From Oscillospiraceae bacterium (lineage in GTDB: Bacteria; Bacillota; Clostridia; Oscillospirales; Oscillospiraceae), in contig JAFSJZ010000048.1 of the NCBI GenBank assembly GCA_017449185.1, positions 2,937-66,936 of the forward strand: a stretch of 64,000 bases of DNA, given 5' to 3'. Under the pieces are notes generated by a model that worked only from the letters and a program-made list of their open reading frames with translations, made no database searches and had not been told where the DNA came from. Each line of letters begins with the position of its first letter. Positions within the stretch are counted from its first letter, which is position 1. The translations under genes and the position numbers were made by a program. Positions 4,649-52,625 of the stretch are shown here, one piece after another.

Positions 4649-4663
4649 GCAAAACAGGGGGAA

Positions 4664-5506: not shown

Positions 5507-5516
5507 TTCCTCCTAT

Positions 5517-7352: not shown

Positions 7353-7355
7353 GAG

Positions 7356-7478
7356 TAGTTTCTAGTGTCTAGATTCCAGTTTCTAGAGGACGAGAGTTAC
7401 GATAAAAAATAAAAGAGTGCGGAGATTACTCCGCACTCTTTTTTTTACTAGACACCAGATACCGGATTCTAGAAACTA
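7356..7478. repeat. CTAG-rich palindromic-arm element around a bidirectional terminator (copy 1)
   Basis: Left arm tagtttctagtgtctagattccagtttctag (7356..7386), terminator hairpin 7411..7446, right arm ctagacaccagataccggattctagaaacta (7448..7478). A homologous copy lies at 35476..35597. Confidence 0.65.
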
Positions 7479-12018: not shown

Positions 12019-12133
12019 GGGATCCTCCGGGTTGATGGTTGATCGTATTACATTAATTATAGCGCCAAAGCGCGGGAACTGCAACTTGAATCGAAGGCCC
12101 GAAGCAATCGGAAAAAGAAGAACAAAGGGAGCG

Positions 12134-12162
12134 TTGAAATTTGCGCAGATCGGTGATACAAT
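12134..12162 (+). promoter_or_regulatory. Sigma-A-like promoter of the VTC operon
   Basis: TTGAAA (12134..12139), 17-nt spacer, TACAAT (12157..12162). Confidence 0.55.
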
Positions 12163-12193
12163 AAATTGGTTAAATAGAGAAGGAGGCTGCGGG

Positions 12194-13571: not shown

Positions 13572-15151
13572 TGATGAAAAAACTATCGGCTGCACTGCTG
13601 ATCCTTGCGCTGTGCTTCGGCGCGCTTACCGGCTGCGGCGACATCGTGATCGGCGCTCAGCCCACGCCCGCGCCCGCGCCTGAACCCATACAGAATACGC
13701 CGGGCGGGATCGTGATCGACCCCGTCGACACCTCTCCCAAGGGCGGCGACATCACCCTCAACGGCAGCGGCGCTTCCTTTACCGGCAGCGGCGTCTCGAT
13801 CTCCGGCAGCACGGTGACGATCGCCTCGCCGGGCAGTTATACCGTGTCCGGTACGCTGGACGACGGCTGCATCGTCGTCAACACCGGCGAGGTCAAGGGC
13901 GACGTCACGCTCACGCTCAAGGGCGCGGACGTCACCTGCCTCAGCGGCCCCGCGATCCATGTGATCGAGGCCAAAAACTTCAACCTCGTCCTGGCACAGG
14001 ACACGCAGAACCGTCTCGTTTCCGGCTCGGAGGAGACGGAGGTCGTCGTCAAGCAGGACGGCGCGGCCCTCTTCTGCGAGGACGACCTGAACATCCGCGG
14101 CAGCGGCTCGCTTGAGGTGCTGGGCTGGCTCAACAACGGCATCACCTGCAAGGACGACCTCGACATCGAGGACGGGATCATCCGCGTGACGGCCGTCTAT
14201 AACGGCGTCAAGGGCTCCGAGTCCGTGGAGATCTTCGGCGGAAGCCTTACCGTCAGCGCCGGCAACGACGGCGTCAAGACGAGCTCCGCGAAGAAAGAGG
14301 GCAAGGGCTTTCTCACCGTCGAGGGCGGCACGCTGGATATCACAGCCGGCGGCGACGGCCTCTCGGCCGAGACTGCGCTGACGGTTTCCGGCGGCGAGAT
14401 CCGCGTTACGACGAGCGCCGAAAGGGAGGACGGCAGCAGCAAGGCTCTCAAGGCCAAGACGCTGCTGACAGTCTCCGGCGGCACGCTGACGATCGACAGC
14501 GCGGATCACGCGCTCCACTGCACGGGCGACATCGAGCTCTCCGGCGGCACGCTGACGATCGACAGCGCGGATCACGCGCTCCACTGCACGGGCGACATCG
14601 AGCTCTCCGGCGGCACGCTGACGGTCGACTCCCGCGCGGGCAAGGGCGTATCGGCCCACGGAACGCTGACGCTCTCGGGCAGCATGCTCGATATCACCTC
14701 CTCCGACGACGGCGTCGAGGCCGAAGAGGCTGTCACGATCTCCGGCGGAGAGCTGCGGCTGTTTACCGGCGGCGACGGCATCAAGGCCGGCAGCAAGAGC
14801 GGCGCCGGAGCGGGGACGCTTTCGATCACCGGCGGCAGCGTGACGCTCAGCGCCCACGGCGATCCCTTCGACGCCAAGGGCGGCGCGACGATCTCCGGCG
14901 GCAGCTTTACCGGCGTCGGCAGCCCGAAAACGCCGCAGGGCTTTTCTCCCGAAAGCCCGCAGCGCTCGCTGCTTTTCCTCTTCAACGGGGGAGCGAACAC
15001 GGCCGCCGAGGTCCGGAGCGCTTCGAACGAGCTTGTCGGCGCGGTCGAGGCCCGCTGCGGCTATACCTGCGCGATCATTTCACGCGCGGGGCTTGCCTCG
15101 GGGACCTATACGATCGAACTCGGAACGCTCAAGGCCTCCGCAGAGGCTTAA
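13571..15151 (+). CDS. Secreted lipoprotein, Cthe_2159-like beta-helix 'carbohydrate-binding domain-containing protein'
   Basis: TAATG overlap with the upstream gene. Lipobox LTGC. Periodic G-x-L-x-I/V rungs (SGGTLTIDS..., GGSVTLSA...). Confidence 0.75.
   Translation: MMKKLSAALLILALCFGALTGCGDIVIGAQPTPAPAPEPIQNTPGGIVIDPVDTSPKGGDITLNGSGASFTGSGVSISGSTVTIASPGSYTVSGTLDDGCIVVNTGEVKGDVTLTLKGADVTCLSGPAIHVIEAKNFNLVLAQDTQNRLVSGSEETEVVVKQDGAALFCEDDLNIRGSGSLEVLGWLNNGITCKDDLDIEDGIIRVTAVYNGVKGSESVEIFGGSLTVSAGNDGVKTSSAKKEGKGFLTVEGGTLDITAGGDGLSAETALTVSGGEIRVTTSAEREDGSSKALKAKTLLTVSGGTLTIDSADHALHCTGDIELSGGTLTIDSADHALHCTGDIELSGGTLTVDSRAGKGVSAHGTLTLSGSMLDITSSDDGVEAEEAVTISGGELRLFTGGDGIKAGSKSGAGAGTLSITGGSVTLSAHGDPFDAKGGATISGGSFTGVGSPKTPQGFSPESPQRSLLFLFNGGANTAAEVRSASNELVGAVEARCGYTCAIISRAGLASGTYTIELGTLKASAEA
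14472..14603 (+). repeat. Perfect 66-bp tandem duplication (2 copies; a third partial copy follows)
   Basis: Period 66: 14472..14537 equals 14538..14603. It encodes SGGTLTIDSADHALHCTGDIEL twice. Confidence 0.9.
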
Positions 15152-23767: not shown

Positions 23768-23843
23768 TGGTGCTCCAGCGGGGATTCGAACCCCGGACAC
23801 CCTGCTTAAAAGGCAGGTGCTCTGCCTACTGAGCTACTGGGGC
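23768..23843 (-). tRNA. tRNA-Lys (anticodon UUU), CCA encoded
   Basis: Manual fold of 76 nt. Anticodon arm CCTGC-CTTTTAA-GCAGG, T arm CGGGG-TTCGAAT-CCCCG. The acceptor stem has one C:A mismatch at 3:70. Confidence 0.8.
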
Positions 23844-23846
23844 GGG

Positions 23847-23920
23847 TGGCTGGGATGGCGGGACTCGAACCCACTATATCGGAGTCAAAGTCCGGTGTGT
23901 TACCATTACACTACATCCCA
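23847..23920 (-). tRNA. tRNA-Gln (anticodon UUG), CCA encoded
   Basis: Acceptor TGGGATG/CATCCCA, loop containing CTTTGAC, T arm GTGGG-TTCGAGT-CCCGC, discriminator G. Confidence 0.85.
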
Positions 23921-23970
23921 AAGCTGTTATGAAAGAAACCGGCGGCCGCGGCCGCCGGCCTCTTTTTAAG

Positions 23971-24047
23971 TGGGGTGGGATATGGGGCTCGAACCCACGA
24001 CACCCGGAACCACAATCCGGTGCTCTGCCAACTGAGCTAATCCCACC
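23971..24047 (-). tRNA. tRNA-His (anticodon GUG) with encoded G-1, CCA encoded
   Basis: G-1 opposite C73. Anticodon arm CCGGA-TTGTGGT-TCCGG. T arm with TTCGAGC. Confidence 0.85.
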
Positions 24048-24213
24048 AAATCGTCCTCGCAAGCGCGAGGATTTTCCTTTTCACCGTCTAACCAAATCAA
24101 AGCCCGGCGAAGCGGGTTTGATTTGGAAAAGGAAGAAGGAACTGACGGATGTGCAGTTTTCGCGGCTCTTACGCAAACCGCGGAAACGGAACGCAGTCTG
24201 TTTCTTCTGACGC

Positions 24214-24290
24214 TGGCACGCCAAGAGGGATTCGAACCCCCGACCTATTGCTTAGAAGGCAATTGCTCTATCCTGCTGAGCTATTGGCGC
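24214..24290 (-). tRNA. tRNA-Arg (anticodon UCU), CCA encoded
   Basis: Anticodon arm ATTGC-CTTCTAA-GCAAT, acceptor GCGCCAA/TTGGCGT (G1:U72). Confidence 0.85.
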
Positions 24291-24326
24291 ATATCGATGC
24301 TGCCACTCAACTCCCAAAGCAAATAC

Positions 24327-24400
24327 TGGAGCGGGTGATGGGAATCGAACCCACGTATCCAGCTTGGAAGGCTGGTGTTCTACCATTGAACTACACCCGC
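24327..24400 (-). tRNA. tRNA-Gly (anticodon UCC), CCA encoded
   Basis: Acceptor GCGGGTG/CACCCGC, anticodon arm CCAGC-CTTCCAA-GCTGG. Confidence 0.85.
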
Positions 24401-39808: not shown

Positions 39809-39885
39809 GCGCCTTTAGCTCAGCTGGATAGAGCGTCTGGCTACGGACCAGAAGGTCAGGGGTTCGAATCCCTTAAGGCGTGCCA
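39809..39885 (+). tRNA. tRNA-Arg (anticodon ACG), CCA encoded
   Basis: Acceptor GCGCCTT/AAGGCGT (G1:U72), anticodon arm TCTGG-CTACGGA-CCAGA, T arm AGGGG-TTCGAAT-CCCTT. Confidence 0.85.
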
Positions 39886-40194: not shown

Positions 40195-41427
40195 TTACTG
40201 TACCGTAAGCATCGCTGTATCAGAGATTAGTTCTTTTCCGTCCAGGCCCATGATGACGCAACGGAATTCATAGCCGTTGAGGCGGCTTTCGGCCAATATG
40301 GTGCACTTAGTCCAATTGCTTCCGCTTGTGACCAATATGGTGTCGGGGATATTGCTCCAGTCAGATGTTCCGGGGGATCTGTACTGCCACTGTATTGTGT
40401 CAGCACCTCGTGCAGTTATATTGAAAACTGCGTTTTCGCCTTCTGCAACAGCAACGCTCTCAGGCTGAACCAAAATGGCGGAAAAGAAAGTTATCGTTGC
40501 CGTCTGACTTGCGAGTTTTTTCCCGTAGGCATTTGTGATCAAACACCGAAGCATCCAATGGTTCATATCCGCCGTTGCATGAATGATCAGTTGGCTCATC
40601 GTTGCCGATGTGGGGCCTGAAAGCTTATACCAGGTGGAGCCGCCGTCCTTGCTGAAGATCCATTGATAGGTCAGGCCTGTTCCCGATGCCTTGACCCTGA
40701 ATTCCAGGGTTCCTCCTCCGGGAAAAAACGTGTTTATACTATCTGGCTGTCTCGTAATATTCGGCAGCACCGTGAGCGTAGCTGGATTTGAGATGGATGA
40801 GCCGTTCTGACTCGTTACGATACAGCGGAACTGATAGTCGTTCATCGTATCACGGGCTTTGATGACCAGATGAGACGTCGCCGCGCTGCTGGCGTTTGTT
40901 AAATTGCTCCAGCTTTCGCCGTTGCTGCTGACCTGCCACTGATAGCGCAGATTCGAGCCCGTGGCACTGACTGTGAAACTTGTTTGGCAGGATTCATAAC
41001 CGCTGTGTGTTTTCGGATGCACGGTGATGCTGGGGCCCGTACCGGTCGTGTCGGACAAAACCGTCAGCGTTGACGCGCTGCTGGTCATCGTGTTCCCTTT
41101 GCTGTCCGATATCCTGCAGCGGAACTTCATGCCATTCATGCTTTCGCTTGCCGTGAGCCGCAAATTGGATGTTTTTGCGCTGGTTGCCCTGGTAATACTG
41201 GCCCAGACTTCGCCGCCGGGGCTTGACTCCCATTGATAGGTCAGCGTTCCGCTTCCGTTTGCGGTAACTGAAAACTGCGCGATGTTGCCTGCAAAAACGC
41301 TTGTTTGCGCAGCCGGCTGGCGGGAGATCGTGATGGAGTCGCTTGCCGCGTCGATGGGAGTCGGAAGAATCAGCAAGTATAACGCCAATAACGCCAACAG
41401 CAGCGCTGTTATTTTACGCAAACGCAT
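40195..41427 (-). CDS. Secreted protein with four tandem Ig-like repeats
   Basis: Signal peptide. Four units of about 90 aa, each with Q-P...F.V.A.G..L.YQW......W..........L.I......N...F.C......G......A.LTV. AT-richer than the flanks. Confidence 0.75.
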   Translation of the reverse strand: MRLRKITALLLALLALYLLILPTPIDAASDSITISRQPAAQTSVFAGNIAQFSVTANGSGTLTYQWESSPGGEVWASITRATSAKTSNLRLTASESMNGMKFRCRISDSKGNTMTSSASTLTVLSDTTGTGPSITVHPKTHSGYESCQTSFTVSATGSNLRYQWQVSSNGESWSNLTNASSAATSHLVIKARDTMNDYQFRCIVTSQNGSSISNPATLTVLPNITRQPDSINTFFPGGGTLEFRVKASGTGLTYQWIFSKDGGSTWYKLSGPTSATMSQLIIHATADMNHWMLRCLITNAYGKKLASQTATITFFSAILVQPESVAVAEGENAVFNITARGADTIQWQYRSPGTSDWSNIPDTILVTSGSNWTKCTILAESRLNGYEFRCVIMGLDGKELISDTAMLTVQ

Positions 41428-42195: not shown

Positions 42196-43422
42196 ATGAC
42201 ACTCTTCAATCAATACCGCGGGCTGCGGCGCGAGATCTACATCCTCTGCTTCGGCAGGATGGTCACGAATCTCGGCAGCATGATCTGGCCCGTCATGACC
42301 ATGATACTCAGCCAGAAGCTCGGCCTCTCGGCTGCGCAGATATCCTATTATTTTGTCGGCTCCAGCCTGATCATGCTGCCGGCCAACATCATCGGCGGCA
42401 GGCTGGCCGACCGTCTGAACAAAAAATGGCTGATCGTATGCTGCGACTGCGTCAGCATCCTCTGCTTCTTCATCAGCGCGGCGATCCCGCTCGGGATCGG
42501 CACGATCATCCTCTTTATCGTCGGAGGCATTTTCCAGAGCGTGGAATACCCCTCATACGACACCCTGTTTGCCGATCTGTCGACGACAAAGGACCGGGAG
42601 CGCGCCTATTCGCTCGAGTACCTCGGGGGCAACCTCGGGCTTGTCCTCTCGCCGACCATCGCGGGGCTCCTCTTCAAGGACTATCTGTGGCTGAGCTTTC
42701 TCATCAGCGGCTTTTCCATCGCGGTCTCGACCGTCCTCATCGCCGTTCTCGTCAAGGACGTCACGCCCGTCGAGGATACCGGCGAGGAGGCGACTTACCA
42801 GGAGAAAAAGGACGGAGCGAGCGTTTTCGCCATCCTCAGGGAGAACCCGCTCATCCTGCTCTATCTTCTCTGCGGAACTTTCTATTCCGCGGCCTACGGA
42901 CAATACAACTTTATCATGCCGCTCGACATGGCCGCCGTCCACGGCGACGCGGGCGCCGTCATCTTCGGCACGGTCTCCAGTCTCAACTGCATCACGGTCG
43001 TCATCTGTACGCCCCTTATTACCCGGCTCTTTGCAAGGGTGCGCGATACCGGCAAGATGCTCGCGGGCAGACTGCTCGTTTTCGCGGGATACATGGTCTT
43101 CCTCCTGCTGTTGGGCTTTATCCCGGGCTACTATCTCGCCATGCTGATCTTCACCTGGGGAGAGATCTTCGACGTGCTTTCGTCGGGGCCCTATGTCTCG
43201 ACCCGCATCCCCGCGAGTCACCGCGGCCGGATCAACGGCTTCATGAGCGTCGTTTACACGTTCGTGACGGGCGGGATCGACCTGGTCGTCGGGCAGCTGT
43301 ACGACCGCGCCGGCTCCTCCGCAACCTGGGCGCTCATCCTTACGGTGACGCTCTTCTCCGCCGCGCTGACGCTCCTTCTCAAGGCCTTCGATAAAAAGAG
43401 GTATCCGAAGCTGTATACATGA
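42196..43422 (+). CDS. MFS transporter (Mef/EntS-like exporter architecture)
   Basis: 408 aa, 12 predicted TM segments, and a GGRLADRLNKKWLIV loop motif resembling macrolide-efflux-type MFS proteins (from memory). Confidence 0.85.
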   Translation: MTLFNQYRGLRREIYILCFGRMVTNLGSMIWPVMTMILSQKLGLSAAQISYYFVGSSLIMLPANIIGGRLADRLNKKWLIVCCDCVSILCFFISAAIPLGIGTIILFIVGGIFQSVEYPSYDTLFADLSTTKDRERAYSLEYLGGNLGLVLSPTIAGLLFKDYLWLSFLISGFSIAVSTVLIAVLVKDVTPVEDTGEEATYQEKKDGASVFAILRENPLILLYLLCGTFYSAAYGQYNFIMPLDMAAVHGDAGAVIFGTVSSLNCITVVICTPLITRLFARVRDTGKMLAGRLLVFAGYMVFLLLLGFIPGYYLAMLIFTWGEIFDVLSSGPYVSTRIPASHRGRINGFMSVVYTFVTGGIDLVVGQLYDRAGSSATWALILTVTLFSAALTLLLKAFDKKRYPKLYT

Positions 43423-43514
43423 TGCTGTTGTTTCCGGCAGCGGCGTATGGTATACTGTCTTCAGCATTACAGCAGCTCAATGACCGAAAGAACGACGATA
43501 CAGGAGAGCGTCTC

Positions 43515-44324
43515 ATGAAAACAGCGGTGATCACAGGCAGCACGCGCGGACTGGGCTTTGAGATGGCCAAGCGCTTCCGTGCGGCGGGATGGAATCTGGT
43601 TATCAACGGCGTGAGCGAGGCGCGGCTCGCTCAGGCGGTGGAAACGCTGCGCGCGCTGCCCGGCGCGGGCGCGGTGGAAGGCTGCCGCGGCAGCGTCGCG
43701 GACGCAAACGAGCTGCAGGCGCTGGCGGACTTTGCCTTCGAAACATTCGGCACGGCCGAGATCTGGATCAACAACGCCGGCGTCAACCAGCCCATGAAGC
43801 CGATCTGGGAACTGAGCGAGCAGGAGATCGACGCGATCCTCGACATCGACCTGCGCGGCGCCGTGCTGGGCAGCCGTCTGGCCATACAGCGCATGGAGTC
43901 CCAGACAGAGGGCGGTTTCGTCTACAACCTCGAAGGCTACGGCAGCAACGACGCGATGATGCTGGGCCTGAACATGTACGGCACCAGCAAGCGCGCCGTG
44001 ACGCACTTTACCCAGGCTCTGGCCAAGGAACTGGAAGAACGCGGCAGCCGCGTGAAGGCCGGGCGGCTCTCGCCGGGCATCATGATCACCGACTTTACCG
44101 TGAAGGCTCTCGGCGGAAAGGAGAGCATTGCCCTGCCGGAGAAGACGAAGAAGGTCTACAACATTCTGGGCGACTACCCGGACGTCGTGGCCGCGCATCT
44201 GGTAAAAGGCATGCTGGAGAACACGAAGAACAACGCCCACATCGAATGGCTGACGAGCGGCAAGGCCGCCTGGCGCTTCCTGACCGCGGCCTTCAACAAG
44301 CGCGACTTTTTCGCGGAGCAGTAA
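43515..44324 (+). CDS. SDR-family oxidoreductase
   Basis: ATG at 43515 after AGGAGAG. TGSTRGLG cofactor motif, NNAG, and YGTSK catalytic motif. Confidence 0.9.
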   Translation: MKTAVITGSTRGLGFEMAKRFRAAGWNLVINGVSEARLAQAVETLRALPGAGAVEGCRGSVADANELQALADFAFETFGTAEIWINNAGVNQPMKPIWELSEQEIDAILDIDLRGAVLGSRLAIQRMESQTEGGFVYNLEGYGSNDAMMLGLNMYGTSKRAVTHFTQALAKELEERGSRVKAGRLSPGIMITDFTVKALGGKESIALPEKTKKVYNILGDYPDVVAAHLVKGMLENTKNNAHIEWLTSGKAAWRFLTAAFNKRDFFAEQ

Positions 44325-44384: not shown

Positions 44385-45026
44385 TTACTTGAAGCTCGAG
44401 ATACCGTAACTGTTGACCAGCGCATCGAGCTTGACGCCGGCCTTGCACAGCGGGCACTGGGAGGCGGGAACGGAGCTGTAATCCTCCAGCACTTTGGCGT
44501 GGAAGATCGTCGTGACCGGAAATTCGCCGCACTTGTCCAGGCAGGAGAAGATGCTGCAGATACCGACGGGGATGCCGCCGTAATAGCGCACGGCCTCAAT
44601 GGCCTCCAGCACGGCGCCGCCGGTCGTGACCGAGGCGGCCAGCACCAGGATATGACGGCCCCGGATCAGATGGGCGATGTTCTCGCGGAAGATCTGCATG
44701 TTGCCGGTGGTAATCTCCGGCGTGACGACATAGAGGGTGTTGTGCTCGTTCTCATTGCGGATGCCCTGCTCGATCAGCTCATCGGCGAGGCATGCGCCGA
44801 GCACCTCCGTCCCGTCAAGGCAGAGGATCGTATCCACGACCTCGGAGCTCTGGTACTTGATCGCCAGCTCGCGGGCGGCCTGCCGCGCCTCGGCGAGGCG
44901 GTGCTTGGTGAAGGTCATGTCGACGAAGTAGTTGATATGGCTGTGGCTCGTGGCAAAATGCCCCTTGGCGATGCGCAGGGGAATCTCGCTGTATTCGCTG
45001 CGGAAATGGACGGTCGGGATCACCAT
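44385..45026 (-). CDS. Phosphoribosyltransferase-fold protein
   Basis: PRPP-binding-like ILVLAASVTTGG motif. The start is uncertain (ATG 45026 or GTG 45062). Confidence 0.7.
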   Translation of the reverse strand: MVIPTVHFRSEYSEIPLRIAKGHFATSHSHINYFVDMTFTKHRLAEARQAARELAIKYQSSEVVDTILCLDGTEVLGACLADELIEQGIRNENEHNTLYVVTPEITTGNMQIFRENIAHLIRGRHILVLAASVTTGGAVLEAIEAVRYYGGIPVGICSIFSCLDKCGEFPVTTIFHAKVLEDYSSVPASQCPLCKAGVKLDALVNSYGISSFK

Positions 45027-45379
45027 AGAAACGCGCGCTCCTTTCTGCTTTATACTATCCACTGATAAAACTCTTTAAATCTTTCCGGCAAAAACGCCGC
45101 CATGCTGCGTTGCTTCCCTTGACCATATATTTCCATTATGCTCTGCGGAAAGCGCCTTGCCTGACGCCTTTTTTGCTTGGAAATCTAATGAAGCTTTTTA
45201 TCAGTGAATAGTATTACAAAAATACAAACCGAATGCTCGATATCAACATTTTAGCACAGCGCCGCACGGCATACAAGCGGAAAATGCGCCGTCCCGGGGC
45301 GGAAAAAGCCGAGCCTTCGGCATAGTGCGCAGAATGGCGCATTATTTCTTGGAAGATTCTCCAATCTGCCGCGTTTCCG

Positions 45380-45408
45380 TTGACAGATTTCCCTTGTTCC
45401 TGTATGAT
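45380..45408 (+). promoter_or_regulatory. Sigma-A promoter (extended -10) of the tat-flavoprotein-nrfA-ccs operon
   Basis: TTGACA (45380..45385), 17-nt spacer, TG-TATGAT (45401..45408). Confidence 0.6.
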
Positions 45409-45470
45409 AATTGTGTACGTTTATATCTGTTTCATGGCTTTTTTATCTGATTCCGGAGGAAGAAAACGCA

Positions 45471-45761
45471 ATGAAGATCGGCGCGCTGGAACTTATCGTC
45501 GTGTTCATCGTGGCCCTGCTCGTGATCGGGCCGGACAAGCTGCCGCAGTATGCCAGGAAATTCGGCGCCGCCATGCGGGAATTCCGCAAGGCCTCTCAGG
45601 ACGTGACGCAGGAGATCCGCGAGAGCGTGATCGATCCGCTCGAGGAGGCGCAGAAGCCCCTGAAGGATGCGATAGAGCCGATCGAAGAGCTGGAAAAGGG
45701 CTTGAAGGACGACGTGAAGAGCGTTGAAAAAGACCTCAGAGATCTCGGGAAAGCCAAATAA
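45471..45761 (+). CDS. tatA: Twin-arginine translocase TatA/TatB-family protein
   Basis: GGAGGA RBS. Has the TM helix + G-P + amphipathic helix layout of TatA/B: MKIGALELIVVFIVALLVIGPDKLP. Confidence 0.85.
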   Translation: MKIGALELIVVFIVALLVIGPDKLPQYARKFGAAMREFRKASQDVTQEIRESVIDPLEEAQKPLKDAIEPIEELEKGLKDDVKSVEKDLRDLGKAK

Positions 45762-45782
45762 ACGGAGCGGAGGAAAAACAGT

Positions 45783-46013
45783 ATGAGAATCGGAACACAG
45801 GAGCTTATCATCATCCTGATCGTCGTCATCATCATTTTCGGACCCACGCAGATCCCCAAGCTGACGAAGATGTTCGGCAAGAGCGTGAAAAGCTTCAAGG
45901 ACGGCATGGAAGAGGTCGTCTCCGGCGACGCGCCGGAAGAGGACAAGGAACAGAAGCCGCAAAAGGCCAAGGCCGTAAAGGAGGCCGAGGCTGCCGATGA
46001 AGACGAAAGCTGA
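45783..46013 (+). CDS. tatA: Twin-arginine translocase TatA/E-family protein
   Basis: MRIGTQELIIILIVVIIIFGPTQIPKLTKMFGKSVKSFK. Confidence 0.9.
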   Translation: MRIGTQELIIILIVVIIIFGPTQIPKLTKMFGKSVKSFKDGMEEVVSGDAPEEDKEQKPQKAKAVKEAEAADEDES

Positions 46014-46755
46014 CGCCGCTTCCCCCAATCCGGACGGGAGCATGACGCTCTCCGGCCACCTGCGGGAGCTGCGCCGCCGCATCCTGGTGTGCGTCGTGCT
46101 GCTGCTCGTCGTGTTCGGCGTCTGTCTGGCCTTCGCCCCGCGCATCGTCACACTGCTGACCGACATGGGCACGCGCTACGCCTACGTCTACGTGTACATC
46201 GCCCCGCAGGAGCTGCTGCTGGTCTATCTCAACGTCGCCCTCGTCGCGGCGCTGATGCTCTGCTTCCCCGTGCTGGCCTACGAGGCCTACGCCTTCTGCA
46301 GCCCGGGGCTGAAAGCGAAGGAGCGGCGCTATACGATCGGCGCGCTCTTTGCCGGAACGCTCTGTTTCCTGCTCGGCGCGGCCTTCGCGTACTTTATCAG
46401 TCTGCCCTTCATGCTGCGCTTTCTGATTCAGTTCACCGCGGACGTGGACGTTGCGGCGTCCATCAGCATCGACCAGTACGTCAGCTTTTTGCTGACGGTG
46501 TTCATCATTTTCGGCCTCGTGTTCGAACTGCCGGTCGTCTCCGTGCTGCTGACGGCGCTGGGCGTCATTCAGCCGGCCTGGCTCGTGAAGGGGCGGCGCG
46601 TGATGATCGTCGTGATCTTCTTCCTGGCTGCCGTCATCACCCCGCCGGACGTGGTCTCCCAGATCATGCTGGCCCTGCCGATGATGGCGCTCTACGAGCT
46701 GAGCATCCTGCTCAGCCGCGCGGTCGGACGGGCAAAGGCGCAGGCCGCGGCATAG
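45997..46755 (+). CDS. tatC: Twin-arginine translocase subunit TatC
   Basis: HLRELRRRIL N-terminal motif, six TM segments, 252 aa. Confidence 0.9.
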   Translation: MKTKADAASPNPDGSMTLSGHLRELRRRILVCVVLLLVVFGVCLAFAPRIVTLLTDMGTRYAYVYVYIAPQELLLVYLNVALVAALMLCFPVLAYEAYAFCSPGLKAKERRYTIGALFAGTLCFLLGAAFAYFISLPFMLRFLIQFTADVDVAASISIDQYVSFLLTVFIIFGLVFELPVVSVLLTALGVIQPAWLVKGRRVMIVVIFFLAAVITPPDVVSQIMLALPMMALYELSILLSRAVGRAKAQAAA

Positions 46756-46825
46756 CCGTCGGCAGGGGAGCGCGTTTAACACAGGGTACTCTATTTTCGG
46801 AAATAAAAATATAGGAGGACACACC

Positions 46826-48868
46826 ATGGCAAACAAAGAGCTTTCCCGCAGAGACTTTCTCAAAGGCATGGCTGCGGGTGCCGTGGGGATGGCCACGATG
46901 GGCGTCCTGAGCGGCTGCGGCGAGGCCGCGACCGCGAGCGCGCCCGCCGCCGCAACGGAGGCGCCTGTCGCCGCCGCGGCAGCCGCAGAGGCCATCTACA
47001 CCCCCGGTACATACTCCGCAGCCGCAAAAGGCATTGCCAGCGACGTCAAGGTCACGATGACCTTCAGCGAGACCGCCATCACCGACTGCAAGATCGACGT
47101 CTCCGGCGAAACCAAGGACATCGGCGGCAAGATCGGCCCCGCGATGGAGCAGGCCGTTCTGGACGCCCAAAGCCCCGATGTCGACGCCGTCTCCGGCGCG
47201 ACCGTCACTTCCGACGCGATCAAAAAAGCCGTGGCCGACTGTATTTCCCAGGCCAGCGGCAAGGACGTCACGGTCGCGCAGACCGTCGTCGCCAGCGCCG
47301 ACTGGCTGGGCGAGGCTCCGGCCATCTCCGAGGGCGACATCACCGAGACCCTCGACACCGAGGTGCTCGTCGTCGGCTGCGGCACCGGCGGCATCATGGC
47401 CACAATGACCGCTGCCGAGGAAGGCGCGAAGGTCCTTGTGATCGAAAAGCGCGAGACCCCGACCGGCATCCGCGAGGACATCGGCTCGATCAACTCCAGA
47501 CTCCAGCTCGAGAGCTTCGCCGAGTATCCCGAGTTCGAGATCGACAAGGACGAGGCCCTGCATGAGCTTGTGCGCTACGCGGGCGGCTATGTGGATTCCG
47601 ACCTCATCAAGGTCTGGATCGACAATTCCGGCGAGCTGGTCGACTGGCTGACGGACCTCATGGAGTCCACCGGCGACTGGTACATGAGCCTGGAGGGCGG
47701 CATCGGCCAGCCCGAGTTCTACAAGGCCTATGCCACCGGCCACAGCCCCCACAAGACCGCGCAGGGCACGGAGAAGGGCGTCACCACCACCTCGACCTTC
47801 CGCGACTTCTGCGACAAGACCGGCAACGTCGACTGGCGCTTCCAGACCTCTCTCATCAAGCTCGAGCAGACCTCCGACGGAAAGGTCACGGGCGTCATCG
47901 CACAGGACGCGACCGACGGCCACTATCTGCGCATCAACGCCTCCAAGGGCGTCATCATGGCCACCGGCGGCTACGCCACCAACACACAGATGATGCTGGC
48001 CCTCCAGCCCCAGACCATGAAGATGAAAGCCAACGTTCCCATCGGCTCGACCGACGACGGCTCCGGCATCAAGGCGATGCTCTGGGCGGGCGCCGAGCTC
48101 GACCCGACCCACGCCTCCATGATGTTCAACCGCTGCTCCGTCAAGCCCGACGAGACCGCCGGCTACCAGACCAACGGCAAGTGGTACTGGTTCGGCGAGC
48201 AGCCCTTCCTGAAGGTCAATCTCAATGGCAAGCGCTTCTGCAACGAGTCCGGCCCCTACGAGCATATGCTGCACTCGATGTACATGCAGCCCAACCACAC
48301 CTACTGCGATATCTTCGACTCCAACTGCAAGAAATACGCCGAGCAGTTCGACGAGGTCGGCTGCTGCCGCCTCTTCGCCTTCCCGAACGGAGCCGAGAGC
48401 AACATGCCCTTCGATTACGTCTGGGGCCAGATGACCGAAGGCGAGAACTCCCACCTTGCGCTGGGCTATCTGCAGAAGGCCGACACGCTCGACGAGCTGG
48501 CCGAGAAGCTGAACATCCCGGTCGACGCCTTCAAGGAGACCGTCTGGCGCTACAACACCTTCTGCGCCAGAGGCCTGGACGAGGATTACGGCAAGCCCGA
48601 GCACCGTCTCACGCCGGTGGACACGCCGCCCTTCTACGGCATCCGCACCTGCGCCTGGCATCTGACCACGCTCAACGGCTGCCGCATCAACACCGACATG
48701 CAGGTCATCCGTGAGGACGGCACGCCCATCGAGGGCCTCTACGCCACGGGCGACTGCACCGGCGGCTTCTTTGCCCAGACCTATCCGAACCTCTTCACCG
48801 GCCTCGCCTGCGGCCGTACGATGACCTTCGGCCGCCGCGCGGCCAAGAAGGTCTGCGCGAAGAGATAA
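46826..48868 (+). CDS. Tat-signal lipoprotein flavoenzyme: FMN_bind domain plus FAD_binding_2 (fumarate/urocanate-reductase-like) domain
   Basis: SRRDFLKG twin-arginine motif, lipobox LSGC, flavinylation-type motif DAVSGATVTS (SGAT at 47192..47203), VVGCGTGGIMA dinucleotide fold, C-terminal YATGDCTGG. Confidence 0.85.
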   Translation: MANKELSRRDFLKGMAAGAVGMATMGVLSGCGEAATASAPAAATEAPVAAAAAAEAIYTPGTYSAAAKGIASDVKVTMTFSETAITDCKIDVSGETKDIGGKIGPAMEQAVLDAQSPDVDAVSGATVTSDAIKKAVADCISQASGKDVTVAQTVVASADWLGEAPAISEGDITETLDTEVLVVGCGTGGIMATMTAAEEGAKVLVIEKRETPTGIREDIGSINSRLQLESFAEYPEFEIDKDEALHELVRYAGGYVDSDLIKVWIDNSGELVDWLTDLMESTGDWYMSLEGGIGQPEFYKAYATGHSPHKTAQGTEKGVTTTSTFRDFCDKTGNVDWRFQTSLIKLEQTSDGKVTGVIAQDATDGHYLRINASKGVIMATGGYATNTQMMLALQPQTMKMKANVPIGSTDDGSGIKAMLWAGAELDPTHASMMFNRCSVKPDETAGYQTNGKWYWFGEQPFLKVNLNGKRFCNESGPYEHMLHSMYMQPNHTYCDIFDSNCKKYAEQFDEVGCCRLFAFPNGAESNMPFDYVWGQMTEGENSHLALGYLQKADTLDELAEKLNIPVDAFKETVWRYNTFCARGLDEDYGKPEHRLTPVDTPPFYGIRTCAWHLTTLNGCRINTDMQVIREDGTPIEGLYATGDCTGGFFAQTYPNLFTGLACGRTMTFGRRAAKKVCAKR

Positions 48869-48919
48869 GCGCACGCATCCACGGCTGCAAGAAAACGTGA
48901 ATGAATGCAGGAGAGGATT

Positions 48920-50530
48920 ATGAACGCTAAACTGAAACAAAAAAGGCTTGCCGACATCATCGGCATCGCCTGCGGCGTGTTCGTGCTGCTCGTCGGCATC
49001 GTGACCGGCATCGTCAAGAGCCGGCCCGCCACCGTCGGCGCGAACGCCGGGGATATCCCTGCCAGCGCCCAGCATCTGACGGGCACGGCCGAGGGACGCA
49101 ACGGCCCCATCACGGTCGAGATCATCGCGGACGAGAGCCAGATCTATCAGATCAACGTCGTCAGCCACACCGAGACCGACGGCATCGGCACCGTCGCGGT
49201 CGAAAAGCTCCCCGCCTCGATCTACGAGGCGCAGAGCCTGGAGGTCGACAGCGTCTCCGGCGCGACCCTGAGCTCCGACGGCATCAAGGCGGCGGTGCTC
49301 AACGCGATGGAGAGCGGCGGTCTTTCGACCGACAGCTTCGGCGGGGCCGAAGTCGCCGCGGCGGCCTCCGCGCCCGTCAAACTGGCCGAAAAGGTCGAGA
49401 CCAACTCCGGCGTCACGGTGCTGCATGCTTCCGACTGGGCCGCGCAGTACCCCAACGAGTACAACACCTGGCTGATGACCTCCGAGAGCTCCGAAGCCGA
49501 GGATTATCTCGAGATCTACCCGATGCTCCGCACCCTCTACGAGGGCTACGGCTTCGCCATCGACTACAAGGCGGCGCGCGGACATTACTACGACGTCGAG
49601 GATATCGAGGCCACCGGCCGTCCCCATCCGATGGCCAACTGCTGGACCTGCAAGACGCCCGACTTCACGAACATGGTCAACGAGGAGGGCATCGAGGCCT
49701 ACAAGTACGCCTGGACCGACGTCCAGGGCCAGGTCGTCGAGGGCATCAGCTGCTACAACTGCCACGGAAACGATCCGACGACGATCACGATCACCCACAC
49801 CTACTGGATCGACGCGCTGGGCGACGATTTCGAGAATGTCGCGGCGGCGAATCTCGCCTGCGGCCAGTGCCACAACGAGTACTACTTTGCGCCCGACACC
49901 AAGGCGACCACGATCGCTCACGACAGCCTCGAGAGCATGGATCCCGCAACGATGCTGGCCTACTTCAACGACGGGGCAAACTTCTCCAACGGCGAGATGT
50001 TCGCCGACTGGACGAATCCCCGCACCGGCGTCAAGCAGATCAAGGTCCAGCACCCCGAGTTCGAGACCTTCCTCGGCAAGGGCAGCCAGCACGCCAATGA
50101 TTTCACCTGCGCCGACTGCCACATGCCCGAAGCCACGGCCGAGGACGGGACTGTGTATATGAGCCACAACATCATCAGCCCCCTGGATAACGAGGAGCTG
50201 ATCGAAAACACCTGCTCGCAGTGCCACTACAACCTGGTCGAAGAGGTGCAGAAGACGCAGCAGGCGGTCGAGCAGCGCACCTATGCCGTCGGCTATCAGC
50301 TGGAGTATCTCACCGAGCTCCTGGCCAACGCAGTGGCGAGCGGCGAGTACACCGACGCCGACCTCGCGCAGATCCGCATGCTCGCCCGCAACGCCCAGTT
50401 CTACTGGGACTTCGTGTTCGTGGAGAACGCCGAGGGCGCGCACAACCCGACGCTGACCTACGAGTGCCTTGACAAGGCGGAATCCCTCTGCTCCCAGGCG
50501 ATCACCCTGATCCTGAAGCTGACCGCGTAA
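48920..50530 (+). CDS. nrfA: FMN_bind-domain::NrfA (pentahaem cytochrome c552 nitrite reductase) fusion, membrane-anchored
   Basis: N-terminal TM anchor and FMN_bind-like domain with DSVSGATLSS (SGAT at 49256..49267). Haem motifs are CWTCK (Lys-ligated active-site haem, 49640..49654), CYNCH, CGQCH, CADCH and CSQCH. Confidence 0.85.
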   Translation: MNAKLKQKRLADIIGIACGVFVLLVGIVTGIVKSRPATVGANAGDIPASAQHLTGTAEGRNGPITVEIIADESQIYQINVVSHTETDGIGTVAVEKLPASIYEAQSLEVDSVSGATLSSDGIKAAVLNAMESGGLSTDSFGGAEVAAAASAPVKLAEKVETNSGVTVLHASDWAAQYPNEYNTWLMTSESSEAEDYLEIYPMLRTLYEGYGFAIDYKAARGHYYDVEDIEATGRPHPMANCWTCKTPDFTNMVNEEGIEAYKYAWTDVQGQVVEGISCYNCHGNDPTTITITHTYWIDALGDDFENVAAANLACGQCHNEYYFAPDTKATTIAHDSLESMDPATMLAYFNDGANFSNGEMFADWTNPRTGVKQIKVQHPEFETFLGKGSQHANDFTCADCHMPEATAEDGTVYMSHNIISPLDNEELIENTCSQCHYNLVEEVQKTQQAVEQRTYAVGYQLEYLTELLANAVASGEYTDADLAQIRMLARNAQFYWDFVFVENAEGAHNPTLTYECLDKAESLCSQAITLILKLTA

Positions 50531-50613
50531 GCGCGCGCTTCCCATTCACCGGGCCGTCCCGGACAAGTCATCCGCCCGCCCTCCGGGGCGGGCGGCTTCG
50601 TGAAGGGAAATCC

Positions 50614-51831
50614 ATGAAACAAATTCTGCGTCTTCTTCGCTCGATGCGTTTTGCCAATATCCTGCTTGCGCTCGTCGCGCTTTTGTGCGGCGTGAGTTCG
50701 CTGCTGCCTCAGGGCAACGAACTGGCCTACTACGCGCAGAACTATCCGCGCCTCTATCCGCTTATCTACCGCGCGCAGCTCTACGACGTGTTCCGCAGCT
50801 GGTATTTCATCCTGCTTGTCGCACTGCTGAGCCTGAGCATGCTCGCATGCACGGCCTCCATGCTGCGCCGCGCGCTGCGCTCGGGCAGGGGAGCGGTCGA
50901 AAAAGCCGCCGCCCTCCCGAATGCCGAAGCGCTCGACGCTGCAGGGCTGGAAAAGCTGCGGCTTTATCTGGCCTCGATCCGCTGCAAAGAGGAGAAGATC
51001 GGGCAGAGCTTTGTCTTCCACAAAAATGGCTTTGGCCGCTGGGGGACCTTTCTGATCCATCTCTCGATCCTGCTGACGATCGCTTTCGGCGCGATGGCAC
51101 TGTACCTGCCGCAGGTGACAGACCGGAGCTGCTGGCCGGGCGAGACGCTCACGCTGGAGGACGGGACGCAGATCGCGGTGGATTCCTTCTCCATGTACAA
51201 CGCGGAGGGGCAGCTCGATTATGCCAGCGTGATCCGCATCACGCTGCCCGACGGGAGGAGCGCCGGCCCGCAGGAGATCCGCGTGAACTATCCGATGACC
51301 TTCGGCAAGTACAAGGTCTTTCAGTGGAGCTACGGGGCGGGAGGCGCCGTCTCCGCGCGCAGCCTCTCCACCGGCGGAACAGACCGTTTTACCTCTCTTG
51401 ACAGCGGCAGCGTCCTTTCAATCGACGAGAAGAATCTGATCGAATTTCTGGGCGTCTATGAGGCGACGCCCACGGACGGGAGCGAAGAAAAGTTCGTATT
51501 CTATCAGGTGCGCACCGTGCGCGACGGCGTCTATGAGGATGCCGCGGAATACCGCCCGGGCGAAAGCGTCACGCTCGGGGACGTGGAGTTCACCTTCCTC
51601 GACCCCTATTATCCCGGCCTGCGCATCAAGACCCTGCCCGTCCGCGCGGCCAATTCGCTGCTTGAGGCGGCCTTTGTGCTGATGCTCGTCGGGCTGTTTA
51701 TCTGCTTCTATCTCCAGCCCGTGCTGGTCAAGGCGGACGAGAAGGGCTATACCGTCGCCGGACCGCGTGCGGAAAAGCTGCGGCTGGAGCTGCGGGGCAG
51801 ACTGGCCGGGGAGAAGGAGGCGCAGACATGA
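50614..51831 (+). CDS. resB: Cytochrome c biogenesis protein ResB/Ccs1 (System II)
   Basis: 405 aa with an N-terminal TM cluster, a large extracytoplasmic domain and a C-terminal TM. It overlaps ccsA (ATGA). Confidence 0.8.
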   Translation: MKQILRLLRSMRFANILLALVALLCGVSSLLPQGNELAYYAQNYPRLYPLIYRAQLYDVFRSWYFILLVALLSLSMLACTASMLRRALRSGRGAVEKAAALPNAEALDAAGLEKLRLYLASIRCKEEKIGQSFVFHKNGFGRWGTFLIHLSILLTIAFGAMALYLPQVTDRSCWPGETLTLEDGTQIAVDSFSMYNAEGQLDYASVIRITLPDGRSAGPQEIRVNYPMTFGKYKVFQWSYGAGGAVSARSLSTGGTDRFTSLDSGSVLSIDEKNLIEFLGVYEATPTDGSEEKFVFYQVRTVRDGVYEDAAEYRPGESVTLGDVEFTFLDPYYPGLRIKTLPVRAANSLLEAAFVLMLVGLFICFYLQPVLVKADEKGYTVAGPRAEKLRLELRGRLAGEKEAQT

Positions 51832-52625
51832 CGATGACGACGCTGTTTTATATATCCCTCGGCCTCTACGCCGCCGCGCTTCTCGTCGAGCTTGCGGGCG
51901 TGGCCGTGAAACGGGACAAATGGAAAAACCTGGCCTGGTGGGTCTTCGTGCTCGCGCTGCTGACGCACCTGGGCTATTTCGTCTGGCGCGGCCTTGTCGC
52001 GCAGCGTCTGCCGCTCTCGAGCCAGTTTGAGTTTTCCTGCGGCTTTGCGCTGGGCGTGTCGCTGCTGCTGCTCGTGGCGCGCACGCGCCTGAGCGCCGAC
52101 TGGATCGCCGCCGCGGGCATGGCCGCCGTCACGCTGCTGATGGTCTATGCCTCCCGCCAGAAGATGGAGATCAGCGAGCTGATGCCCGCCCTGCGCAGCT
52201 TCTGGTTCGACTTCCATATCGGCGCCGCGGTCTTCTCCTACGCCGCCTTCCTGGTGGCCGGCTGCGTCAGCCTGCGCTATGTGCTGCAGCACCGGAAAGG
52301 CGAGGCCCCGGACAGCCTGAAGATGAAAAAGCTCGAGTACCTCAGCTATCGCCTGGTGGCGCTGGGCTTCCTGCTGCTCACGGCGGTGATCGTCATCGGC
52401 GCGATCTGGGCCGAGGCCGCCTGGTCGGCCTACTGGACCTGGGACCCCAAGGAGGTCTGGGCGCTCATTACCTGGATCATCTACGCGGTGTATCTCCACA
52501 TCCGCCTGCGGCGGCAGTACAGCGACCTGTTTCTGAGCTGGTACGTGATCCTTGCGATCCCGGCCTTCCTCTTTACCTTCGCCGGCGTCAACAAGCTGCT
52601 GCCTGGCCTGCATTCCTACGCATGA
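51828..52625 (+). CDS. ccsA: Cytochrome c biogenesis protein CcsA/ResC (System II)
   Basis: Trp-rich haem-handling motif WAEAAWSAYWTWDPKEVWALITW. Confidence 0.9.
   Translation: MTMTTLFYISLGLYAAALLVELAGVAVKRDKWKNLAWWVFVLALLTHLGYFVWRGLVAQRLPLSSQFEFSCGFALGVSLLLLVARTRLSADWIAAAGMAAVTLLMVYASRQKMEISELMPALRSFWFDFHIGAAVFSYAAFLVAGCVSLRYVLQHRKGEAPDSLKMKKLEYLSYRLVALGFLLLTAVIVIGAIWAEAAWSAYWTWDPKEVWALITWIIYAVYLHIRLRRQYSDLFLSWYVILAIPAFLFTFAGVNKLLPGLHSYA

Follow-up and report, generated by a model that had tools for sequence, protein, structure and literature searches.

The stretch of DNA considered here is a 64-kb window of the genome of an Oscillospiraceae bacterium (contig JAFSJZ010000048.1), and its subject is a run of seven plus-strand genes at 45380-52625 that encode, in order, a TatB-like protein, TatA, TatC, a flavoprotein, a cytochrome c nitrite reductase (NrfA) with a fused FMN_bind domain, ResB and CcsA (Table 1). 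On balance we read this region as a juxtaposition of two separable extracytoplasmic reductase cassettes, one built around the flavoprotein and one around NrfA, in which the NrfA of this Ca. Limivicinus-like anaerobe would be fed by a flavin relay. Comparisons were drawn with approximately 130 related loci (L numbers below), which include 79 GTDB species loci for NrfA; absences were tested inside the 64 kb unless another scope is given, and functional statements are based on sequence and gene context. Nearly all homologues and collinear contigs come from rumen or gut metagenome-assembled genomes labelled Oscillospiraceae, Ruminococcaceae or Candidatus Limivicinus. Open reading frames (ORFs) in the related loci were called with a simple filter on GC content at third codon positions (GC3), and the trees are approximate neighbour-joining trees built on BLOSUM distances.

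Distribution of the tat, flavoprotein and nrfA genes

In Oscillospiraceae, 43 of the 44 evaluable species loci have resB and ccsA behind nrfA, and over all related loci resB lies downstream of nrfA in 67 and ccsA in 70. The flavoprotein gene adjoins nrfA in 4 of 42 evaluable species loci, and nrfA follows the flavoprotein gene in about 3 of 22 evaluable loci with a flavoprotein orthologue. These orthologues (69-88% identity) usually belong to a four-gene tatB/A-tatA-tatC-flavoprotein cassette elsewhere in the genome (seen in L086, L087, L089, L095, L097, L101, L108 and others). An exact-protein look-up gave five loci (L001-L004 and L006) in which nrfA (59-71% identity) is again followed by resB and ccsA, with no tat gene, flavoprotein, NrfH or ApbE within 10 kb of nrfA.

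Where the two cassettes adjoin (approximately 10-14%), they do so in four arrangements. The window and L127 share the order tatBAC-flavoprotein-nrfA-resB-ccsA; in L005, the closest NrfA relative with sequence available upstream of nrfA, the tat-flavoprotein cassette stands in inverted orientation, diverging from nrfA; in L017 and L022 flavoprotein-nrfA-resB-ccsA is followed by a small reverse-strand gene and then tatBAC; and in L034 and L071 the flavoprotein gene is separated from tatC by two unrelated genes. Across tatBAC-flavoprotein, the nrfA-linked L127 is 95-97% identical at the nucleotide level to L101 and L099, which are unlinked, so that these near-identical relatives are set apart by a clean insertion or deletion. 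A dedicated NrfA-associated flavoprotein lineage was rejected, as in the tree the linked flavoproteins are interspersed with unlinked ones.

Three relatives (L008, L024 and L033) keep the gene order of the window for tens of kilobases, with approximately 80% DNA identity. They share with it a phosphoribosyltransferase (PRT)-like gene (44385-45051), nrfA (from about 48933) and argS-arcA-OTC, and the tat-flavoprotein cassette (45052-48932) is what sets the window apart from them. This cassette has replaced the native upstream region of nrfA in this genome, a local and recent state. With that region replaced and 51 nt left, nrfA is probably transcribed from the tat promoter, and both cassettes are likely co-transcribed in this genome. 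The gene at the left border of the insertion, a 225-aa minus-strand ORF (44385-45062) kept upstream of nrfA in all three relatives, has no Pfam match and a weak orotate-phosphoribosyltransferase-like match.

The original prediction took the seven genes as one self-contained module. This does not hold, as the pairing of nrfA with the flavoprotein gene is not conserved, arrangements vary, and the cluster includes neither a membrane electron source nor ApbE, with relatives pointing to Rnf or RnfG-like parts encoded elsewhere. The alternative raised alongside it, of two independent reductases that are co-located, fits better, given that the cassettes are separable across approximately 130 loci. 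The roles given to the accessory genes stand: the tat genes travel with the flavoprotein that they would serve, and the Ccs genes with their single cytochrome. Adjacency of the cassettes is above chance, which is compatible with some functional or regulatory link but not with an obligatory partnership.

A nitrite reductase with a flavinylation-type domain

Judged by its sequence, the NrfA of the window is a genuine ammonia-forming nitrite reductase. The Cytochrom_C552 domain carries five haem motifs, the first of them CWTCK for the lysine-ligated active-site haem, and conserves the catalytic residues R225 (in RGH), Y326 and H383 together with the calcium-site residues E325, K380 and Q382. R225, E325-Y326 (in CGQCHNEYYF) and K380/Q382/H383 (in KVQHPE) align to the Escherichia coli (1gu6) and Shewanella oneidensis (3ubr) enzymes; in E. 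coli numbering we take the catalytic residues to be R106, Y216 and H264, and those of the calcium site E215, K261 and Q263. The best solved-structure matches are themselves NrfA structures (3ubr, 1gu6, 2j7a and 1fs7). Scores lie under the NCBIfam equivalog cut-offs (NF008339, 226 bits against 595; TIGR03152, 186 against 692.5), and the protein is a family member of a divergent Gram-positive lineage, and no equivalog of the enterobacterial enzyme. An exact-sequence look-up of this NrfA matched no record.

Ahead of the catalytic domain lie a signal-anchor helix, an FMN_bind domain with the flavinylation motif DSVSGAT, and a linker of approximately 40 aa. The FMN_bind domain matches the solved FMN4 domain 8p2b (E = 1e-10), which is one domain of a multi-FMN (flavin mononucleotide) protein reported with covalent flavins (PMC10339131), and its position behind the signal anchor predicts an extracytosolic location. 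Over an alignment (A1) of 18 FMN_bind::NrfA sequences with 57-82% identity, the motif residues D115, G119, A120 and T121 are invariant, as are the five haem motifs, R225, E325/Y326 and K380/Q382/H383.

This architecture is widespread. FMN_bind is combined with Cytochrom_C552 in more than 120 clusters at 90% identity, and FMN_bind-NrfA is found in 49 (plus L052) of the 79 GTDB species loci. In the approximate tree of the catalytic domain, the NrfAs with anchor and FMN_bind form one large Oscillospiraceae clade, and outgroup NrfAs from Christensenella-like, Lachnospiraceae and Coriobacteriia genomes have no FMN_bind. Nested within the clade are secondary losses of the domain, in a signal-peptide-only group (L042, L045, L047-L050) and in L061, which kept the anchor. 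When 1.84 billion representatives were searched and the matches scanned with Pfam and NCBIfam, further architectures emerged: two or three FMN_bind domains at the N terminus, two at the C terminus, or a full-length RnfG followed by FMN_bind and NrfA. As the fusion recurs in different orders, which is classic evidence of this kind, the FMN_bind and NrfA modules would be expected to work together.

The maturation proteins ResB and CcsA fall into two deeply diverged types that occupy one syntenic position. The ResB and CcsA of the window are 74-76% and 84-89% identical to those of L024/L033, and 43-44% and 51-53% identical to those of L005/L008, to whose NrfA that of the window is 79-82% identical; from this pattern the three-gene module nrfA-resB-ccsA is a mosaic. 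In L042, an FMN-less nrfA is immediately preceded (6241-9352) by genes for porphobilinogen deaminase, a fused uroporphyrinogen methyltransferase/synthase and a siroheme-synthase-like NAD-binding protein, which hints at tetrapyrrole supply co-located with the cytochrome in some species.

Absence of a nearby haem partner

The NapC/NirT-type tetrahaem quinol dehydrogenase NrfH normally anchors and feeds NrfA (PMC8840924). Among all ORFs of at least 40 aa, in every frame of the full window, there is no second ORF with a CxxCH motif besides NrfA, and within 10 kb on either side of nrfA in approximately 60 Clostridia loci there is no other ORF with two or more. A positive control came from seven Eggerthellaceae loci (L078-L084), in which a membrane-anchored cytochrome of 231-257 aa directly follows nrfA. 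It belongs to the Cgr1 family (NapC/NirT/NrfH-like; in L079, NF051471 with 390 bits against a cut-off of 340), to which the cytochrome of the cardiac-glycoside reductase operon also belongs, and proteins of this type may serve as NrfH equivalents in Eggerthellaceae. A fused NrfH within the window NrfA was considered and rejected, as the weak NCBIfam matches to NrfH (E = 8e-5) and NrfB (E = 2e-3) reflect haem-motif likeness inside the NrfA domain and no stretch passes alone.

Donors and flavin-attachment genes of other kinds were sought as well. Pfam scans covered 27 proteins of the window, leaving out about a dozen plausible genes. No member of the ApbE family turned up in the scans of 20 of the other plausible genes outside the seven, and tblastn over the whole window with Rnf subunits, ApbE of relatives and an RnfG-like di-FMN protein gave no match. 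Listeria-type genes for extracellular electron transfer (EET; Ndh2, EetA, EetB, DmkA/B, PplA, FmnA and FmnB) turned up neither among the 27 scanned proteins nor among the recurrent neighbours in approximately 130 related loci, no Listeria-type query having been used in either case. The only recurrent neighbours of nrfA in the clostridial loci are resB, ccsA and a Crp/Fnr-type regulator with cNMP_binding and HTH_Crp_2 domains (12 loci: L047 at 1537-2268, L077 at 9074-9763 and 10 further loci), and the scanned part of the window has no such regulator. A search for 5-Nx-5 palindromes upstream of nrfA in approximately 65 loci found no shared operator, only lineage-restricted motifs such as GTTGC-N4-GCAAC (5-7 loci), and no such motif was matched in the window.

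The original prediction had listed no NrfH, NrfBCD or other CxxCH protein nearby and no ApbE in the window, and both absences were borne out, the first over 64 kb and the Clostridia loci, the second by the Pfam scans and by tblastn with the ApbE of L131. It had also seen an FMN_bind domain with a flavinylation motif in both redox proteins, which is correct (DSVSGAT in NrfA, DAVSGAT in the flavoprotein). Its suggestion that a flavin domain stands in place of the haem partner gains from the presence of the fusion in about 50 species, the conserved motif and the multi-FMN_bind and RnfG fusions.

The flavoprotein

The neighbouring flavoprotein combines a twin-arginine translocation (Tat) signal with the SRRDFLK motif, the lipobox LSGC, an FMN_bind domain with the motif DAVSGAT and a FAD_binding_2 domain. 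It is a member of the fumarate-reductase-like superfamily: its nearest solved structures are flavocytochrome c fumarate reductases (best match 1d4c, E = 4e-33), 3-ketosteroid dehydrogenases and urocanate reductase. The fumarate-binding Arg is missing, as the C-terminal ANRLGGN motif of FccA, whose substrate-binding Arg we take to be Fcc3 R545, aligns to PNLFTGL, and the best NCBIfam match, vinyl phenol reductase, reaches 198 bits where the cut-off is 600. With the Arg of the motif absent and this score far under the cut-off, the assignment as a fumarate reductase was rejected. Among the orthologues the Tat signal is near-universal, the lipobox is present in some only, and the flavinylation motif shows a few variants (such as SSAT, AGAT and SGVS). 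The FMN_bind domain also matches 8p2b and, sitting behind the Tat signal and lipobox, is predicted to be extracytosolic.

Electron supply to NrfA

Relatives point to Rnf or an RnfG-like protein as the place from which a flavin relay could start. In L052 and P0244 a full-length RnfG (TIGR01947, 131-134 bits against a cut-off of 102; model positions 2-186 of 187) is fused to FMN_bind and NrfA. The FMN_bind domain of the window NrfA aligns to the second, NrfA-proximal FMN_bind domain of this fusion (34% identity, E = 5e-10), and RnfG and NrfA, which are joined in cis there, would act in trans in the window genome. Over its N-terminal 330 residues the L052 protein shares 77% identity with an RnfG-like di-FMN protein of 332 aa that occurs free. 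The latter, with its two FMN_bind domains, is encoded in L131 (2-5283) as the last of a gene series that starts with a FAD_binding_2 paralogue (27% identical to the window flavoprotein) and continues with tatB, tatA and tatC (products 75-78% identical to those of the window) and ApbE. The series amounts to a complete set of flavinylation-linked parts in a related organism. The rnfCDGEAB genes lie approximately 1.2 kb from nrfA-resB-ccsA in L046 and L070. The gene for the flavoprotein orthologue comes next after rnfB, on its strand, in L092, L093 and L096, while L087 and L089 have theirs no more than 2 kb away from rnf. This amounts to 7 rnf adjacencies, besides at least 2 lineages of RnfG-NrfA fusion. 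An RnfG::NrfA fusion replacing rnfG inside an rnf operon was looked for and was unseen in the three loci examined (L052, L132 and L133).

Together, the observations fit the following scheme. TatB-like, TatA and TatC would export the flavoprotein as a folded lipoprotein reductase loaded with flavin adenine dinucleotide (FAD). NrfA would be exported unfolded and held at the membrane by its N-terminal signal anchor; ResB and CcsA would attach its five haems outside the cell, and an ApbE encoded elsewhere would probably flavinylate Thr121. Electrons could then pass from an outward-facing flavin relay to the tethered FMN, along the haem chain of NrfA and to the CxxCK active-site haem, which would reduce nitrite, and probably also nitric oxide (NO) and hydroxylamine, to ammonium. 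The FMN_bind domain and the anchor would in this way cover both jobs of NrfH, electron delivery and membrane attachment. The flavoprotein would be wired likewise through its own FMN_bind domain, its tat-flavoprotein cassette having been inserted directly upstream of nrfA, probably with one promoter for both cassettes.

The relay is most likely Rnf, acting through RnfG, or an RnfG-like di-FMN membrane protein, encoded elsewhere in the genome. As a general statement, we think it rather likely that a flavin serves as the entry point instead of NrfH, and hold a supply of electrons that depends on Rnf as a tentative proposal. It is possible, if rather unlikely, that FMN_bind::NrfA and the neighbouring flavoprotein are terminal branches of the Rnf complex, in a 'ferredoxin:nitrite' respiration independent of quinones and NrfH and possibly ion-motive. 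Rnf would then take electrons from reduced ferredoxin (or NADH), with the outward-facing covalent FMN of RnfG, or of the RnfG-like di-FMN protein, as their point of exit, and a flavin-to-flavin hop would bring them to the reductase, in NrfA by way of FMN and the haem chain to nitrite.

Several observations weigh against this scheme. The window holds neither ApbE nor Rnf nor another membrane donor. The RnfG::NrfA fusions of L052, L132 and L133 lie outside rnf operons, and their RnfG-like part may represent a paralogous flavin anchor and no subunit of the complex. The nested Oscillospiraceae NrfAs that have lost FMN_bind also have no NrfH nearby, which indicates that the fused flavin domain is dispensable. 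An AlphaFold2 model of NrfA built on the 18 sequences (mean predicted local distance difference test score, pLDDT, 68; predicted template modelling score, pTM, 0.63) gave no support from FMN-haem geometry; it has low confidence at the flavinylation loop and linker and is too poor for fold search or domain docking. Lastly, the adjacency of flavoprotein and nrfA recurs beyond chance expectation.

That adjacency is the strength of a rival explanation, in which the flavoprotein and NrfA form a self-contained surface module and exchange electrons directly between their FMN_bind domains without a membrane partner, the flavoprotein for example oxidising an extracellular substrate and NrfA reducing nitrite. 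The two genes are 36-51 nt apart in the window, with no space for a promoter of nrfA's own; both proteins bear the flavinylation motif; and the adjacency is found in 9 loci (the window, L005, L017, L022, L034, L071, L090, L110 and L127) that span two NrfA subclades and several flavoprotein subclades, far beyond chance. However, approximately 90% of FMN_bind::NrfA loci are without the flavoprotein and approximately 86% of flavoprotein-orthologue loci without nrfA; the linked loci differ in arrangement, as in the divergent L005; linked flavoproteins do not group together in the tree; and tatBAC-flavoprotein is nearly identical in L127 and L101/L099 while the nrfA module differs. We therefore consider direct exchange within such a module decidedly improbable. 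Lower still do we rate the view that a canonical quinol-oxidising partner (NrfH, NrfBCD or CymA-like) encoded elsewhere is the real donor and that FMN_bind is accessory or vestigial. In its favour, the analysis covered 64 kb of the genome, and the FMN-less NrfAs of the same clade, with no linked partner, show that unlinked donors exist in the lineage. Against this, no multihaem ORF is found within 10 kb of nrfA in approximately 60 Clostridia loci, whereas Eggerthellaceae keep their NapC/NrfH-like neighbour; the ccs genes travel with nrfA, as would be expected of the only c-type cytochrome of a genome; the flavinylation motif is invariant down to 57% identity; and a vestigial FMN_bind is hard to reconcile with its independent multiplication and fusion at either end of NrfA.

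Flavin input could also be real with a donor other than Rnf, either a Listeria-type quinone chain (NDH-2, demethylmenaquinone, EetAB and PplA-like proteins), a membrane b-type cytochrome (DUF4405, PepSY or MsrQ-like) or free flavin shuttles. Such routes to flavinylated extracytosolic reductases have been characterised or proposed (PMC8238504; PMC11334425), a DUF4405 cytochrome from an Oscillospiraceae bacterium having been expressed in the latter study, and the position of RnfG::NrfA fusions outside rnf operons suits them. Yet only ResB/CcsA and the Crp/Fnr-type regulator recur near nrfA or the flavoprotein gene, and the Pfam listings of the exact-protein loci hold nothing EET-like, with no search targeted at NDH-2, EetAB or b-type cytochromes, while rnf operons and RnfG-like modules do recur. 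We regard a donor of this kind as unlikely, and prefer a relay from Rnf or an RnfG-like protein.

Physiological role

Nitrite ammonification is the default reading of the function of NrfA here. The enzyme could instead mainly detoxify nitrite, NO and hydroxylamine under nitrosative stress without conserving energy, which is compatible with the flavin mechanism and which we rate as a serious contender, a little short of an even chance. In L132 an RnfG::FMN_bind::NrfA and a second NrfA are flanked by an Fe-S protein plus Hcp (Prismane) on one side and a YgbA_NO protein on the other, Crp/Fnr-type regulators adjoin nrfA in 12 loci, and the hosts are fermentative rumen and gut Clostridia. On the other side, ion translocation could stay coupled if electrons leave via Rnf, and a dedicated anchor, flavin chain and maturation system are typical of respiratory reductases. 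In view of the Hcp/YgbA_NO context of L132 and the frequent Crp/Fnr-type neighbours, a role in nitrosative stress is no less likely than energy-conserving respiration, and one does not exclude the other.

The L132 cluster (346-8684) comprises, in order, genes for the Fe-S protein, Hcp, RnfG::FMN_bind::NrfA (apparently frameshifted), a second, FMN-less NrfA of 429 aa, ResB, CcsA and YgbA_NO, and looks nitrosative-stress-related and built around a flavin-wired NrfA.

Relation to known systems

NrfH and NrfBCD are the two donor systems given in reviews (PMC8840924). The NrfA of the window resembles that of the NrfHA complexes of Wolinella succinogenes and Desulfovibrio vulgaris in its five haems, CxxCK haem, catalytic Arg/Tyr/His, calcium site and location at the outer face of the cytoplasmic membrane; unlike them, it has no linked NrfH and bears a fused signal anchor and a flavinylation-type FMN_bind domain. 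With E. coli NrfABCD it shares the catalytic subunit family (the NF008339 match covers window residues 161-539), though far under the cut-off, and differs in having no linked NrfB pentahaem carrier or NrfCD and in relying on System II ResB/CcsA rather than Ccm plus NrfEFG for maturation. The nearest Gram-positive relatives outside Clostridia are the Eggerthellaceae NrfAs (43-46% identity), which, unlike the window NrfA, have no FMN_bind domain and are directly followed by their NapC/NrfH-like partner.

In Listeria monocytogenes FrdA and S. oneidensis UrdA, an FMN_bind domain with [S/T]GA[S/T] is the point of electron entry to the fused reductase (PMC8238504). The window flavoprotein has exactly this architecture, of extracytosolic FMN_bind and FAD_binding_2, and differs from the fumarate reductase FccA in lacking the fumarate-binding Arg. 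In FrdA the flavin domain replaces the haem domain of FccA, whereas the window NrfA combines flavin and haems in one chain, its flavin domain feeding, unlike that of FrdA and UrdA, a multihaem enzyme and not an FAD domain.

The closest precedent is a multi-flavinylated RnfG with a multihaem cytochrome domain from Christensenellales, in the context of an RNF cluster (Méheust et al., 2021, Fig. 6H), and L052/P0244 may be of the same kind. The multihaem domain is not named there as NrfA or c552, and neither PF02335 nor nrfA was found in the part of the supplement that was available (Méheust et al., 2021). Unlike this RnfG, the window NrfA consists of an anchor and one FMN_bind domain and stands with resB and ccsA, away from rnf. 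The main papers on extracytosolic flavinylation make no mention of NrfA or c552 (PMC8238504; PMC11334425), the text of an nrfA survey of more than 1 million genomes mentions neither nrfH nor FMN, and a full-text literature search gave no paper joining NrfA with flavinylation or FMN-binding domains. The modular logic is therefore partly anticipated, and the FMN_bind::NrfA fusion is without prior description in the literature searched.

The accessory genes have parallels too. W. succinogenes nrfHAIJ encodes NrfI, a CcsBA-type lyase, beside the cytochrome that it serves, and Bacillus subtilis tatAd/tatCd-phoD encodes a Tat translocase beside its substrate. The haem-attachment and Tat genes of the window likewise adjoin the cytochrome and the substrate that they would serve. 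They differ in that ResB and CcsA are separate genes, unlike the CcsBA-type NrfI, and probably form the organism's only Ccs system, and in that the Tat set adds a TatB-like third component to the tatAd/tatCd plan.

Organisation of the locus and neighbouring features

All seven genes, on one strand and with the domains first proposed for them, were confirmed, the Cytochrom_C552, FMN_bind and FAD_binding_2 domains by Pfam. The gaps between the genes are, in order, 21, -17, 70, 51, 83 and -4 nt. The sole strong promoter-like site upstream of them is that at 45380-45408; of the extended -10 promoter originally proposed, the promoter stands and the TGn element was not detected by scan at this site. 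The TTG start at 45411 first given to the tatB-like gene is probably too early, and 45471 is preferred. For nrfA, a start at 48920, which is preceded by AGGAGAGG, is more likely than one at 48905. TatC, TatA-family components and an adjoining twin-arginine flavoprotein make up a Tat set with substrate, and a ResB-family and a CcsA-type protein (by Pfam and NCBIfam) a System II maturation pair. No terminator was found 3' of ccsA and argS begins 72 nt further on, so that transcription may run beyond the seven genes. Approximately 40 nt 5' of the -35 hexamer that belongs to the tat promoter lies a perfect palindrome (TGCGC-N6-GCGCA), which other loci do not share; it may bind a regulator or have arisen by chance.

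Table 1. Features of the window, with positions counted from its first letter.
Feature	Position	Strand	Residues	Evidence or content
Sigma-70-type promoter, TTGACA-17-TATGAT	45380..45408	+		11/12 positions match consensus
tatB-like (TatA/B family), 96 aa, begins MKIGAL	45471..45761	+		PF02416 E = 3e-15; TIGR01410 tatB 57.2 vs cut-off 56.5
tatA	45783..46013	+		PF02416 E = 2e-12; TatA/E subfamily models slightly under cut-offs
tatC	45997..46755	+		PF00902 E = 4e-62; TIGR00945 190.6 vs cut-off 132.7
Tat lipoprotein, FMN_bind + FAD_binding_2 reductase, 680 aa	46826..48868	+		Pfam domains, TAT_signal, lipobox
Flavoprotein TAT_signal	46844-46864 (SRRDFLK)	+	5-24 (TAT_signal)	
Flavoprotein lipobox LSGC	46907-46918	+	28-31	
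Flavoprotein FMN_bind	47030-47245	+	69-140	49.5 bits vs cut-off 22
Flavoprotein motif DAVSGAT	47183-47203	+	120-126	
Flavoprotein FAD_binding_2	47363-48784	+	180-653	144.9 bits
Membrane-anchored FMN_bind::NrfA, pentahaem, 536/541 aa	48920..50530 (ORF opens 48905)	+		FMN_bind, Cytochrom_C552
NrfA signal-anchor helix	48953-49018	+	~17-38	
NrfA FMN_bind	49094-49312	+	64-136	57.2 bits vs cut-off 22
NrfA motif DSVSGAT	49247-49267	+	115-121	
NrfA Cytochrom_C552 (PF02335)	49433-50521	+	177-539	260.6 bits vs cut-off 24.1
NrfA haem motifs	49640-49654; 49751; 49859; 50108; 50213	+		CWTCK; CYNCH; CGQCH; CADCH; CSQCH
resB, System II cytochrome c maturation	50614..51831	+		PF05140 E = 1e-31
ccsA (NCBIfam model named ccsB), System II haem-handling subunit	51828..52625	+		PF01578 E = 1e-36; TIGR03144 194 vs cut-off 187.6
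Perfect palindrome	45326-45341			TGCGC-N6-GCGCA
Phage-type integrase	13-972			adjoins tRNA gene 1134-1204, left window end
Group of three genes	11996-15151			VTC-domain protein, DUF4956 protein, Cthe_2159-type carbohydrate-binding lipoprotein
Five-tRNA cluster	23771-24400			
tRNA gene	39809-39882			
Insertion relative to L008	40064-44384			just after the tRNA gene above
Ig-like-repeat surface protein, low GC	40195-41427	-		in the insertion
Major facilitator superfamily (MFS) transporter	42196-43422			in the insertion
Short-chain dehydrogenase	43419-44324			in the insertion

Elsewhere in the window, the insertion relative to the collinear L008 may mark an integration hot spot. The genes at 11996-15151 are unrelated to the NrfA/flavoprotein locus, and a SpoIIR gene fits a spore-forming Clostridium relative.

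Implications

The textbook donors of NrfA, NrfH and NrfBCD, are both quinol-dependent. In a large clade of Clostridia from the rumen and gut, nrfA has neither donor gene beside it, and its product is fused to at least one flavinylation-type domain and in some cases to an entire RnfG. Should the flavin be where electrons enter, this would be a third wiring of ammonia-forming nitrite reduction, and the interchange of flavin and cytochrome modules would extend to a mixed flavin-to-haem chain. If the connection to Rnf is also true, a multihaem enzyme would for the first time be seen to have a covalently flavinylated domain as its physiological donor. The system is small, at three genes plus ApbE. 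The locus also illustrates that tightly spaced, co-directional genes can be a recent juxtaposition of two cassettes and not an ancestral functional unit.

For the organisms themselves, the findings suggest a route of nitrite disposal in fermentative, probably quinone-poor anaerobes. They bear on nitrate feeding of ruminants, where methane mitigation is set against nitrite toxicity, on nitrosative stress in the gut, and on how nrfA-based surveys of nitrate ammonification are to be read.

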